This document shows positions 15,510 through 59,165 of a stretch of 64,000 bases of DNA, one piece after another (within the stretch, counting starts at the first letter, position 1; the number at the start of each line of letters is the position of its first letter). The position numbers and the translations under genes are program-made. The notes under the pieces were generated by a model. It was not told where the DNA came from. It searched no databases and saw only the letters and a list, made by a program, of their open reading frames with translations. The DNA is from an archaeon (GTDB taxonomy: Archaea > B1Sed10-29 > WALL01): NCBI GenBank assembly GCA_042584585.1, contig JBHOSQ010000001.1, positions 1 through 64,000 of the forward strand, given 5' to 3'.

Positions 15510-15541
15510 ATTTATATACCCGTAATTCATAGGTGTTTTTC

Positions 15542-16033
15542 ATGACGCAATACAAGGAACAGGCCCATGTCCGCGACATCTCCAAGGAAGTGATTCTCCA
15601 CGCAATTGAAGCGATTTGCGCGGGAATGATCCAGGACGCGCGGTACAACTTCGGCAGAGAGGCGGGGTATTCTTCGCAGCTCCTGGTCAAGGAGGACGAA
15701 GGCTTAGTGTTCTGCGAAGTCAAGTTCATTCCGTATGACTACCGGTTCAGGTGGCTCGTCGAAAAAGAAAAAGACGGCTACCTCGTGACGTTCGTCGGCT
15801 CCACGCCCAACCCGTGGTTCGAGTTCCTGACGCGCCAAAGCGAAAAGCTCCGTGGCCTCGTGGACACGCAGTGGAGTGCGTTCGTCAACTTCGGCATCGG
15901 GTTCGTCACATGCAACTACTACTACAAAAACGTGCACAGCAAAGCAAAGACCAAGGCCCCGCGCGAGCACATCAAGAAAGCGGCGACTCGCGTCAAGAAA
16001 AGAAGCAGGCACAAAAAGACCAAGATTGACTGA
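15542..16033 (+). CDS. Hypothetical protein with basic C-terminus
   Basis: ORF with upstream TTTATATA; no motif recognised. Confidence 0.65.
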   Translation: MTQYKEQAHVRDISKEVILHAIEAICAGMIQDARYNFGREAGYSSQLLVKEDEGLVFCEVKFIPYDYRFRWLVEKEKDGYLVTFVGSTPNPWFEFLTRQSEKLRGLVDTQWSAFVNFGIGFVTCNYYYKNVHSKAKTKAPREHIKKAATRVKKRSRHKKTKID

Positions 16034-16090
16034 GCCAACATTAATTGGGTAGCCACTGCAACATACCTAGGCATAGCAACAGCAACATAC

Positions 16091-16118
16091 GGGGGAGCCG
16101 CCAGTTGGCGGCTCCCCC
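16091..16118. repeat. REP-like palindrome, family 1
   Basis: GGGGGAGCCGCCA GT TGGCGGCTCCCCC followed by AATC. Confidence 0.75.
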
Positions 16119-16160
16119 AATCAAACAGAGGTCAACCCAAATCAGGTGACTAGCGGCAGC

Positions 16161-16434
16161 AAAAAACAAGGGAGCCGGGAAGAGCGTTGGCCCTTCCCGG
16201 CGTTGCTTCCATGTGGATAATACCAGAGGCAGGAGACGTCTCTTAGGTTCTCCACTTACTTCCCGTTCGTTGCCTACTAGAGGAAGCCTCAGTACACCTC
16301 GCGTGGAAACACCCCGGCGGGAAATTTGAGCTTTGGCGAGGAAAGTATTTCTCGAACCTCTTTAAAGCAAGTTGGGTACAGCCAGTGGCTGGGGACCTAG
16401 CCTGCTGCCAAAGTTGCTCTTTCCCACCGGGGAC
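16161..16434 (-). ncRNA. Unassigned structured ncRNA candidate (~270 nt)
   Basis: TTTATATA promoter (16454-16461); 13-bp stem CCCCGGUGGGAAA/UUUCCCGCCGGGG; CUUUGGC/GCCAAAG; terminal hairpin then UUGUUUUUU. G-U pairs form only on the minus strand. Confidence 0.7.
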
Positions 16435-16521
16435 TGTACTTACGCTAACCAAATATATAAACCTATCGTGTAATAATGTTCAATAGTTTAGGAGTAATTG
16501 CAAGGACTGGACAGTTGTCCA

Positions 16522-17253
16522 CTATCTTTTGTGTGTTGCTTTGTATTTGATTGTTTGGTGTGGGCCCTGCACATACCGGTCTTTCATAATCTTGACCGGC
16601 AGCTTGCGGTATGCCTCTACTTTCTGAGGGCTCATCCCGATGTAGTCCGTAACCTTCGAGCCGTATTCTTTCTTGGCCTTGTTCCGCTCCTCGTCCGCTA
16701 CTTCTTTTGCCTGTATGGTTGCGGGGCCATGGACGGTCACGTCAATTCCGTTTTTGGCCAGAATCTTCGCGAGCTTATCCACACACGAGTCCAGGACCGT
16801 GCCGGCCAGAACAACTGAGCGCACTTTCTTTTTCTTAAGGAACGGCACGACTTCGTTGGCAATGCGGTCCAGGTCCATGAAAGGCTTAAGCGCCGCCTCC
16901 CCCTCGTCCATTCCCTTGACACACCGGTGCATTATGAACACCTGCTCGCCCGGCAGCTTCAAAAGGCTTGGAGGCTCTCCCGAAGCCACTCGCGAAACAT
17001 TGGAGCGCGTGTTGCTCACCAGTAATGGGTCGTCTATTTTTTCGGACTCGTGGTTCCTGTGGTGAATGGTAAGGACGGTGCTGTCCGCGAACTGTTCCTT
17101 CAAGCCGTTTATCTCGTTGGTCACCCGCATGAAGCCCGAGCCATTGCCCTGTTTCTTGAGGATGTTTTGGGCGTGCCTGTCGAAGTGCAGGACAATAAGG
17201 CCGTCCGCATCAATCGGGGTGTGGTGGTCCAAGAGACCGGTCTGTTTCACCAT
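16522..17253 (-). CDS. Cysteine hydrolase/isochorismatase-like protein (divergent)
   Basis: LIVLHFD...FLKKKKVRSVVLAGTVLDSCVDKLA. Confidence 0.6.
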   Translation of the reverse strand: MVKQTGLLDHHTPIDADGLIVLHFDRHAQNILKKQGNGSGFMRVTNEINGLKEQFADSTVLTIHHRNHESEKIDDPLLVSNTRSNVSRVASGEPPSLLKLPGEQVFIMHRCVKGMDEGEAALKPFMDLDRIANEVVPFLKKKKVRSVVLAGTVLDSCVDKLAKILAKNGIDVTVHGPATIQAKEVADEERNKAKKEYGSKVTDYIGMSPQKVEAYRKLPVKIMKDRYVQGPHQTIKYKATHKR

Positions 17254-17290
17254 CAACTAATTTATACCCGAACGGCTTTTAAAAAGCCTT

Positions 17291-50434: not shown

Positions 50435-50548
50435 TGGGCGTGCCGAGATTTGAACTCGGGACCTCCGGTTGTCTCCGGCTCGCGGCCGAATGTCTGGAAC
50501 GCTGCCATATAAGACCGGCGCTCTGAAACCAGGCTAAGCTACACGCCC
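50435..50548 (-). tRNA. tRNA-Ile(UAU) with 37-nt intron at 37/38 (50471-50507)
   Basis: GGGCGTG...CCGGT CT TAT A [intron] A ACCGG...CCGAG TTCAAAT CTCGG CACGCCC A; relaxed bulge-helix-bulge. Confidence 0.9.
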
Positions 50549-57524: not shown

Positions 57525-59165
57525 ATGCTTGAGCTCAAGCGCGAGGCGGCAAAGGTTTTGTCGGAAGCGACCGGGAAAACAGTGACTGTGGAGAGCCTCA
57601 GCCCTGCGCCGAAGCCAGAGATGGGCTTTTTCTCCAGCCGCGTGGCTTTTGAGTTGGGTGGAAACCCGGCGGAAAAGGCGAAGGAAGTCGCCGCGAAAAT
57701 CAAGAGCCCGCTGTTCACGGCAAAGGCGATTGGGCCGTACGTCAATTTTTTTCCTTCTGAAGATTACTCAAAGCAATTAGCCGAAAAGATTCTTGCCGAA
57801 CGGGATGCTTACGGCAAGGGCGAAAAGAAAAAAGAAAAAGTAATGGTCGAGTACTCGCAGCCGAACACGCACAAGGCTTTTCACATTGGGCATATCCGCG
57901 GGACGAGTTTGGGGTATTCGCTTGCGGAGATTATGGAGCACGCCGGGTATGAGGTAGTAAAAGCAAACTACCAGGGAGACGTGGGCGCGCACATCGCGAA
58001 GTGCTTGTGGGCGATGCAAAAGTTCCACGCCGGCGAAGAGCCGCCGGCCGCGAAGGGCAAGTGGCTCGCCGAGATTTACCGCGAGGCGAACCAGAAACTA
58101 AAGGACAATCCGGATTACGAGGAAGAGGTCAAGGCCGTCTTCCACAAAATGTTTTTCGACAAGGACCCGGAATTGACGAAATTGTGGCAGGAGACGCGGC
58201 AGTGGAGCCTGGACGAGTTTGAAGGGATTTACAAGGAAATGGGCGTTTCGTTTGACGTGAACTTCTTTGAGTCGCAGGTGGAGAACGAAGGCGTCAAAAT
58301 CGTGAACAAGATGCTTGCGGACGGCCTCGCCAAGAAAGACGATGGCGCGATTATCATTGACTTGGACAAGCTTGGGGTATTTTTGCTGTTGCGGAGCGAC
58401 GGCACGCCGCTTTACTCGACGAAGGACATCGAGCTTGCGGCAAAGAAGTTCAAGGAGTACAAGGTCGACAAAAGCATTTACGTCACCGGCTCCGAGCAGA
58501 AGCATTACTTCCAGCAGTTGTTCAAGGCGCTTGAGGTGATGGGGTTCGAGCAGGCAAAGAAGTGCGTGCACATCCCGTTCGAATTGGTCATGCTTCCCGA
58601 GGGAAAAATGCAGACGCGGGAAGGAACAGTTATTTTTTACGAAGACTTCGCGAAGGAAGCGAAGGACCGGGCCTTGAAGGAAGTGCAGGCAAAGAACCCC
58701 GACTTGGAGGACAAGGAAGGCGTCGCGCGTGCGGTGGGGATTGGCGCCATTAAATATTCAATGTTAAAAGTATCGAACACGAAGACGATTGTGTTCGACT
58801 GGGAAAAGGCTTTGTCGTTCGAGGGAGAGACCGCGCCGTACATTCAGTACGCGAACGTGCGTTGCCACAGCATTTTGGAAAAGGCGGGGAAGAAAGGAAA
58901 AGCCGGCACAGTAAATGCACCTGAGTTGATTTACGAATTGTCGCGGTTTGATGACGTTGTTGCGGAGGCCGCGAAGGAGTATTCCCCTCACGTTCTCGCG
59001 CTGTACGCTTATTCGTTGGCGGACGCGTTCAGCGGGTTTTACACGAAGCAGCAGGTAATCGGCAGCGACGACGAGGACGCATTATTGGCCCTCGTGGAAG
59101 CGGCGAGCGTTGTTTTGGAGAACACGCTGCGGCTTCTTGGCATCGAGGCGCCGAGAAGAATGTAA
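57525..59165 (+). CDS. argS: Arginine--tRNA ligase
   Basis: EYSQPNTHKAFHIGHIR, RSDGT, KMQTREG, PYIQY, terminal RM. Confidence 0.97.
   Translation: MLELKREAAKVLSEATGKTVTVESLSPAPKPEMGFFSSRVAFELGGNPAEKAKEVAAKIKSPLFTAKAIGPYVNFFPSEDYSKQLAEKILAERDAYGKGEKKKEKVMVEYSQPNTHKAFHIGHIRGTSLGYSLAEIMEHAGYEVVKANYQGDVGAHIAKCLWAMQKFHAGEEPPAAKGKWLAEIYREANQKLKDNPDYEEEVKAVFHKMFFDKDPELTKLWQETRQWSLDEFEGIYKEMGVSFDVNFFESQVENEGVKIVNKMLADGLAKKDDGAIIIDLDKLGVFLLLRSDGTPLYSTKDIELAAKKFKEYKVDKSIYVTGSEQKHYFQQLFKALEVMGFEQAKKCVHIPFELVMLPEGKMQTREGTVIFYEDFAKEAKDRALKEVQAKNPDLEDKEGVARAVGIGAIKYSMLKVSNTKTIVFDWEKALSFEGETAPYIQYANVRCHSILEKAGKKGKAGTVNAPELIYELSRFDDVVAEAAKEYSPHVLALYAYSLADAFSGFYTKQQVIGSDDEDALLALVEAASVVLENTLRLLGIEAPRRM

Follow-up and report, generated by a model that had tools for sequence, protein, structure and literature searches.

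In archaea, EndA cuts RNA at motifs of the bulge-helix-bulge (BHB) type, and RtcB circularises the products, as described in the accessible parts of two studies (PMC12918454, PMC12558985). The substrates that can be gathered from the available text of these and two further papers are the precursors of 16S and 23S rRNA, tRNA introns, including those that hold C/D RNAs, and the transcripts of rearranged genes (PMC12918454, PMC12558985, PMC4731332, PMC3978253). In the full-text literature that we surveyed, outside subscription journals, we met with no account of BHB-bounded RNAs of no known family that are encoded together in a free-standing, promoter-driven array.

Here we describe a locus in an archaeal genome (G000) that, in our reading, encodes such an RNA. 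It lies on the minus strand of the window, by which we mean the whole 64,000-nt stretch of DNA that was analysed, and its relatives in other genomes often carry two to four related units in tandem. We put the probability that the unit is excised at its BHB motif and circularised in an EndA- and RtcB-dependent manner at roughly 0.7. The coordinates of all features are collected in Table 1.

Table 1. Features of the RNA gene in G000 (all on the minus strand of the window) and of the arrays in related genomes.
Feature	Position	Sequence or size	Remarks
Promoter	16454..16470	CACGATAGGTTTATATA	BRE-like flank CACGATAGG and TATA box TTTATATA at 16461-16454
Outer stem, 5' strand	16420..16432	CCCCGGUGGGAAA	Pairs with 16324-16312; 13 bp, one G-U
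Central helix, 5' strand	16416..16419	GAGC, 4 bp	Pairs with GCUC at 16331-16328
5' bulge	16413..16415	AAC, 3 nt	Predicted EndA cut between 16414 and 16413
3' bulge	16325..16327	AAA, 3 nt	Predicted EndA cut between 16326 and 16325
Outer stem, 3' strand	16312..16324	UUUCCCGCCGGGG	From BHB scan and covariation
Predicted excised product	16326..16413	88 nt, probably circularised	From linear and circular MFE, covariation and model R2
P1	16412-16407 with 16337-16332		Inner stem of the 88-nt unit
P2 arm	16406-16366		Internal loop CUA/CAA, GGU/ACC, CCC bulge, hairpin CAGCC-ACU-GGCUG
Junction	Between P2 arm and P3	UUAAA	Three-way junction of the 88-nt unit
P3 hairpin	16360-16338		Conserved loop GAGAAAUAC at 16353-16345
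Decayed second unit	16212..16311	AGUAGG, GAACGGG and GUAAGUGGAGA blocks	Homologous to the inside of the second unit in G002 and G001
Terminator	16161..16201	GCCGGGAAGGG/CUCUUCCCGGC	G+C-rich hairpin 16201-16174, then T6 at 16166-16161
G001 array		Excised 89, 83, 76, 162 nt	Four abutting BHB units
G004 array		Excised 105, 90, 165 nt	Three BHB units
G009 array		Excised 82, 157, 84 nt	Three BHB units
G002 array		Excised 88, 79 nt	Two BHB units
G006 array		Excised 84, 163 nt	Two BHB units
G003 array		Long unit 155 nt	Three units: type-1 and long by BHB scan, one by covariance model
G005, G016			One unit each

An RNA gene with its own promoter and terminator

The gene occupies 16470-16161 and runs from an archaeal TATA promoter through a strongly folded RNA to a terminator hairpin and a T-tract. 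A distance of 22 nt separates the TATA-containing end of the promoter from the rod with which the RNA opens, and we infer a transcription start at about 16434 (+/- 3). The promoter block ATTATTACACGATAnnnTTATA is unchanged in an alignment of the three congeners, and the 5S, SRP and tRNA genes of G000 show the same TATA spacing. Each of the nine arrays has a TATA-like box 20-25 nt ahead of its first unit, recognised by regular expression in seven and by eye in G001 and G009. Archaeal RNA polymerase terminates at oligo-T, and a run of at least five T stands no more than 20 nt past the last unit in five of the nine arrays. On its 5' side the terminator hairpin is flanked by GGAAGC-AAC, which resembles what would be left of a further BHB's 5' half.

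The 286-nt region folds with an MFE of -119.8 kcal/mol (z -5.5), a stability equalled by none of 200 shuffles. Since the complementary strand folds well too (z -4.4), the strand is not readable from folding energy alone; it is given by the covariance model, whose score is 143.9 bits for the minus strand as against 25.7 bits for the plus strand. A single ORF spans the region (16243-16452, 69 aa, with a TTG start) and is broken by single-base indels in relatives, and we regard the RNA gene as one without a credible ORF. The first-pass annotation had arrived at this strand, with a TATA box and BRE-like flank about 20 nt before a long rod, inner pairings around a multibranch loop, a closing hairpin with a U-tract and no credible reading frame; each of these is present, and MFE folds return the same three-way junction. 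What the sequence supports is a stand-alone, independently transcribed and structured ncRNA gene that was previously undescribed.

Long inverted repeats are also found in mobile DNA, and the rod could in principle belong to a MITE-like DNA palindrome or a cis-regulatory leader and not to an RNA gene. There is, however, no gene on the same strand downstream that a leader might control, the next gene being convergent; the model's score depends on the strand, and G-U pairs occur; and the internal helices covary in a locus that exists in a single copy per genome. We consider this reading scarcely credible. A dispersed repeat was likewise rejected on the ground of one copy per genome.

A canonical BHB motif in the 5' rod

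The 5' rod (16432-16312) is a canonical BHB motif, a feature that the first-pass annotation had overlooked. At this position an exact scan places an outer stem of 13 bp, then a 4-bp central helix bordered by two bulges of 3 nt, and a 6-bp inner stem (UUUGGC/GCCAAA); the bulges are on opposite strands, exactly 4 bp apart, and each lies 3' of its own strand of the central helix. The unconstrained MFE structure of the 121-nt precursor reproduces this geometry exactly. The handedness of the bulges is that of pre-tRNA: the scan in which it is encoded recovers the stem of the 23S rRNA, and the tRNA intron of the window fits it when inspected by eye.

Under a strict criterion (outer stem of at least 13 bp, inner stem of at least 6 bp, at most one G-U, spacing 37-266) the motif occurs once in the real genome and in none of 50 shuffled genomes. 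When the criterion is loosened (outer at least 9, inner at least 6, at most two G-U) the real genome again yields one occurrence, and six shuffles yield 0, 1, 0, 1, 0 and 0; because two of the six shuffles are hit at this loose threshold, the motif in a single genome is weaker evidence than its conservation. A second BHB-like shape on the plus strand at 58195-58393 (outer 12, inner 8) is G-U-rich, lies within an ORF of 546 aa and is probably due to chance.

Across the units that we collected from related genomes (see below), the sequence of the central helix hardly changes (G[A/G]GC / GC[U/C][C/U]), and variation is seen at each of the outer stem's 13 pairs. To our knowledge, conservation of the central-helix sequence is not required for recognition by EndA, and that of GAGC/GCUC may reflect another role.

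Both enzymes are encoded in G000, EndA by an open frame of 123 aa, possibly incomplete, that touches the edge of a contig (PF01974, 107 bits) and RtcB by a gene matching PF01139 with 546 bits. As a positive control we used the processing stem around the 23S rRNA that G000 itself encodes, which is not in the window but on contig C6 (35656-41036); the same scan describes this stem as an outer stem of 16 bp, a central helix GAGG/CCUC, bulges AAA and AUU and an inner stem of 8 bp. The BHB scan showed no clear BHB around the 16S rRNA of the same operon, so that the use of EndA is not universal in G000. Recent reports tell of archaea in which 23S but not 16S rRNA is circularised, and the pattern in G000 fits them.

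The window also holds an intron-containing tRNA gene (50435-50548, minus strand), which is called by Rfam with 56.6 bits and missed by ARAGORN. Its 37-nt intron sits at the canonical 37/38 position, and the central helix of its BHB has one A-G mismatch.

Proposed maturation and structure of the excised RNA

EndA cuts after the second nucleotide of the bulge, a rule that the intron-containing tRNA fits. Cuts at these places would therefore leave an excised RNA of 88 nt (16413-16326), the predicted junctions being defined to the exact nucleotide. In the pathway that we propose, transcription would start some 22-25 nt downstream of the conserved TATA box, at the foot of the 13-bp stem, and the primary transcript would serve as a processing precursor, its stem running into the helix-bulge-helix-bulge-helix motif. 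EndA would cut within both bulges and release a three-way-junction RNA, the ends of which, a 2',3'-cyclic phosphate and a 5'-OH, would most likely be joined into a circle by RtcB, as they are for pre-rRNA and tRNA introns. The functional and conserved product would be the excised unit and not its flanks. An 88-nt three-way-junction RNA, excised and probably circularised, is the likely product because the BHB is canonical, the 23S stem has the same architecture and genes for both EndA and RtcB are present.

The MFE structures of the linear and the circular 88-nt RNA contain an identical three-way junction; the circular form has a z of -3.5, and none of 300 shuffles is equally stable. In the circle a 5-nt junction loop, CUCAA, caps P1, and as read from the structure P1 and P3 are stacked without a linker. 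Model R2, a covariance model described below, scores 119.7 bits on the G000 unit. The most conserved unpaired sequence sits inside the excised part, namely the GAGAAAUAC loop, GGUCCC and UAA, and the outer stems vary freely. The unpaired features conserved among units are GGUCCC...UACC in P2, a junction of the UAAG type and the P3 loop G-AGAAAYA-C. About half of the units, judged by eye, also contain a loop-E-like AGUA...GAA element, among them the decayed second unit of G000; the consensus used for the loop-E or bulged-G (sarcin-ricin-like) motif was AGUA opposite GAA with Watson-Crick flanks, and the first unit of G000 has the variant CUA/CAA. In either form this internal loop precedes GGU-CCC...U-ACC. 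Because these unpaired conserved features resemble docking sites for protein or RNA, we infer that the 88-nt RNA has a structural or scaffold role in an RNP and is not an antisense guide.

An rRNA-directed guide was rejected, complementarity to the 16S and 23S rRNA of G000 itself being at the level of chance with five matching 8-mers (5.5 expected) and two 9-mers (1.4 expected). A C/D-box sRNA was rejected as well, with no C box (RUGAUGA) in the nine arrays and no CUGA (D box) in the G000 unit.

Comparison with Rfam gave no family at its gathering score in the window, none at E<=10 in 16000-16600 and none at E<=1 in the arrays of six relatives, in keeping with the earlier suggestion of an undescribed ncRNA; a lone sub-threshold match, to RAGATH-35, falls in a relative's locus (L016) outside the array. 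That suggestion had also set aside SRP RNA and RNase P RNA, and canonical genes for both are indeed found elsewhere in G000 (RNase P RNA on contig 17, SRP RNA at C1:110840-111107), as is one for 5S rRNA (contig 24).

A known RNA might nonetheless be present in disguise, either a permuted or split tRNA or else an SRP, RNase P or 5S RNA encoded in permuted form, its order in each case being restored by circularisation at the BHB. Such a route is taken by permuted genes for tRNAs and by one for SRP RNA, according to the parts of the reports available (PMC3978253, PMC4731332), and stacking of P1 on P3 without a linker is as in the acceptor and T arms of tRNA. Yet ARAGORN found no tRNA in any of 18 circularised units, run as doubled excised sequences of the units printed by the scan (17 of them within arrays), and the second position of the 7-nt loop is G, not U. 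The canonical SRP, RNase P and 5S genes elsewhere in G000 also speak against it, as does the lack of an Rfam match, which refers to unpermuted sequences and to the limits of E<=1 for the six relatives and E<=10 for G000. We hold a disguised known RNA to be very improbable.

Distribution and covariation of the RNA family

A BLAST search with the locus finds only two congeners, and in these only the promoter and the first 140 nt or so; conservation beyond the genus is limited to the first 121 nt (16432-16312). Covariance models reach further. Model R1, built on the 121-nt unit, identifies full-length units in eight of the 31 genomes of the phylum, and an unfiltered search adds G004. Model R2, built from 14 units and run with Infernal's stricter filters over 151 genomes, identifies the family in ten, all among the 31 of the phylum, and in none of the 120 genomes sampled from other archaeal lineages; G014 is a weak member. 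By family, the RNA is present in all six genomes of f1, to which G000 belongs, in the two of f2, in the only one of f6 and in one of the five of f8. The unit in the window is the sole one that R2 finds in G000, with no scattered copies.

A strict IUPAC pattern was also run against other collections. In public genome contigs it matched three loci, these being the records of G009 and G003 and an Acidobacteriaceae MAG that has no model match; in metagenome contigs it matched two, neither of them matching the model at E<=0.01 and both taken as chance; and in viral contigs it matched none. As far as sampled, the RNA family is rare and lineage-restricted.

In a MAFFT alignment of the three congeners, which is not fitted to the model, compensatory changes occur at 13 of the 41 pairs and 94% of cells are paired. 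With 14 units from nine genomes, compensatory changes are seen at 35 of the 41 pairs and 92.4% of cells are paired, in an alignment fitted to the covariance model, which favours structure. Shuffles of these 14 units are 66% paired, with none of 500 reaching 92.4%, and slid partners give 27-55%. All 13 pairs of the outer stem covary across the 14 units, and the inner stem covaries too. The structured RNA that had first been read from a single genome is borne out by these changes among its homologs.

Tandem arrays in relatives

The strict scan returns 17 BHB-flanked units with the central helix G[A/G]G[C/U] in eight genomes, and one further row outside the arrays; G003, G016 and G014 have further units beyond the strict 17. 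The units stand head to tail with their outer stems abutting, each having an outer stem of its own. They are paralogous, sharing the BHB sequence G[A/G]GC-AAC ... GC[U/C][C/U]-[A/U]GA, the P3 loop and an AGUAGG...GAA element. Because relatives encode two to four such units head to tail, we read the locus type as a polycistronic cassette for small, stable and probably circular RNAs, and because the residue after removal of the units is little more than stem halves, the units and not the flanks would be the products.

The arrays bear directly on two other readings. In the first, the gene makes a linear ncRNA of about 270 nt that is never cleaved and acts as a whole, its rod being merely a closing stem that resembles a BHB. 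The good folding of the whole region (z -5.5), the gene's own promoter and terminator, and the chance appearance of BHB-like shapes at the loose threshold all agree with it. It is harder to reconcile with conservation outside the genus of the first 121 nt only, with the loss of conserved features in the 3' part, and with the exact 3-4-3 geometry, which is kept in at least 17 units of eight genomes while the stems covary; moreover, abutting head-to-tail units in relatives make no sense for a single linear RNA. We think this reading unlikely, though the most serious of those considered.

In the second, the units are taken for archaeal introns, selfish or relic, and the product is made of the ligated flanks, which in G000 would be an RNA of about 190 nt composed of the 5' leader and the 3' region. 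BHB motifs do define archaeal introns, and what excision would leave in G000 includes a sizeable 3' region, which folds. In G001, G004 and G009, however, the flanks that remain once the units are removed amount to little beyond the halves of the outer stems, and the conserved sequence is inside the units and not in the flanks. Selfish elements would also sit poorly with a locus that occurs once in each genome and whose surroundings are partly conserved, with the lack of scattered copies (R2 has one match in G000) and with the absence of any on viral contigs. We judge the intron reading improbable, and prefer excision of the units as products.

Decay of the array in G000

In G000, unit 1 is followed by about 150 nt that we interpret as a decayed second unit plus the terminator and not as a conserved second domain. 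The stretch 16311-16212 aligns with the interior of the second unit of G002 and G001 (Table 1) and contains a hairpin, AGUA-G-GCAA-C-GAA, at 16278-16266. BHB scans found no BHB around 16311-16212 in G000, and an nhmmer profile of the long unit of 155-165 nt, taken from five relatives, found nothing else in that genome. On our reading, the array has decayed from its 3' end in the lineage of G000 and G002, with unit 1 left intact.

The first-pass annotation had pictured a large RNA of about 270 nt in two domains, which as a single molecule finds no support here. A structured ncRNA with a promoter of its own stands, and only its first 121 nt (16432-16312) are conserved beyond the genus; a folded stretch does exist where the second domain was drawn, at 16311-16212; it is the counterpart of what lies inside a second BHB unit in the congeners, and in G000 its BHB is lost. 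A pseudoknot proposed between GAACCU and AGGUUC falls away, as it is not kept in the closest relative: G002 has GAGGUUUGAG in a hairpin, and its unit 2 is without AAACCU.

Beyond the T-tract, at 16091-16118 on the minus strand, lies a very strong hairpin, GGGGGAGCCGCC-AACU-GGCGGCUCCCCC, which is conserved in G002 with compensatory changes and has as its counterpart in G001 the hairpin inside the third unit. Probably it is either what remains of a unit since lost or a terminator that works in both directions and serves the convergent gene.

Neighbouring genes

No evident partner of the RNA was found among the neighbouring genes. The convergent gene (15533-16033, plus strand) encodes a protein of 166 aa; in G000, G001 and G009 it is next to the RNA array. 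The protein has no match in Pfam or NCBIfam; its structural model (pLDDT 92) gives weak START/Bet v 1-like matches with a TM of at most 0.5, and its C-terminal tail is rich in lysine and arginine. The gene occurs in 14 of the 31 genomes of the phylum, six of them without the RNA by R2, and was not found in the RNA-bearing G016 and G014.

A second gene, of 195 aa (L014:1668-2255, minus strand; homologs L039-L045, 190-200 aa), stands directly upstream of the array in G001, G004, G006, G009 and G016 and 1.4 kb upstream of it in G003, and was not found in G000, G002 and G005. Its product has no family match and carries a D...ExK motif; fold comparison gives weak matches (E of at least 0.09) to PD-(D/E)XK nucleases (restriction endonucleases, Hjc) and to the TBP-interacting protein TIP26. 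A half-TBP gene is near the RNA locus in G000 and G009, and in G009 the 195-aa gene lies between it and the array. The presence of the 166-aa and 195-aa proteins does not track that of the RNA; we rejected both as obligatory partners and treat them as conserved synteny.

Upstream of the RNA promoter, a gene of 244 aa (16522-17256, minus strand) has a sub-threshold match to an isochorismatase domain (24.4 bits, cut-off 27). It is missing at the matching position in G002, where a lipoprotein gene directly precedes the RNA promoter.

Comparison with known BHB systems

The RNA family is new; the mechanism by which we propose that it is processed is a known one, and the kind of substrate is new. 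Going further, we offer with some hesitation the picture of a lineage-specific, polycistronic "ring factory" with a promoter of its own, in which EndA and RtcB would make abundant, exonuclease-proof rings that serve, through their loop-E/sarcin-ricin-like hairpins and the AGAAAYA loop, as protein-docking modules of an RNP in small-genome DPANN archaea; we would give it slightly less than even odds. Were it true, it would be the first natural case in which the splicing machinery is a dedicated maturation route for a free-standing, multi-unit ncRNA family. A dedicated gene transcribed on its own, in relatives an array of such genes, with no other evident design than to supply EndA and RtcB with small structured RNAs of no known family would widen the known roles of the two enzymes. 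A new conserved RNA family would moreover be added to those of archaea whose genomes are very small and in which each gene that is kept is likely to matter, and a natural template for circular-RNA expression cassettes would be provided.

The archaeal pre-rRNA stems, which EndA cuts at their BHB and which give rise to circular pre-16S/23S intermediates or circular 23S, by the EndA/RtcB pathway described in the accessible part of the report (PMC12918454), are alike in that an extended outer stem leads through a 4-bp helix with its two 3-nt bulges into an inner stem, and in enclosing a stable RNA. Here, in contrast, the enclosed RNA is of 76-165 nt and belongs to no known family, the gene has its own promoter, and the units are tandem paralogs. 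Archaeal tRNA introns, such as that of tRNA-Trp with its C/D-box sRNA, resemble our units in that a small functional RNA is freed from a BHB and circularised, going by the portion of the paper available (PMC12558985); in our case there is no tRNA host, the flanks consist of stem only and the nine arrays have no C box. The permuted SRP RNA gene of Thermoproteus offers an example of a transcript, neither tRNA nor rRNA, whose termini form a BHB and are joined, as the available text relates (PMC4731332), but there a known RNA is encoded in permuted order, whereas here no known family is recognised and the canonical SRP RNA is encoded elsewhere. Finally, in metazoan tricRNAs and in engineered BHB cassettes for circular RNA, so far as the partial accounts available describe them, a BHB-bounded cassette gives rise to a circular, structured RNA, as we propose for this locus; those cassettes are placed within pre-tRNA scaffolds, whereas the arrays described here are natural, free-standing and, in our interpretation, polycistronic.
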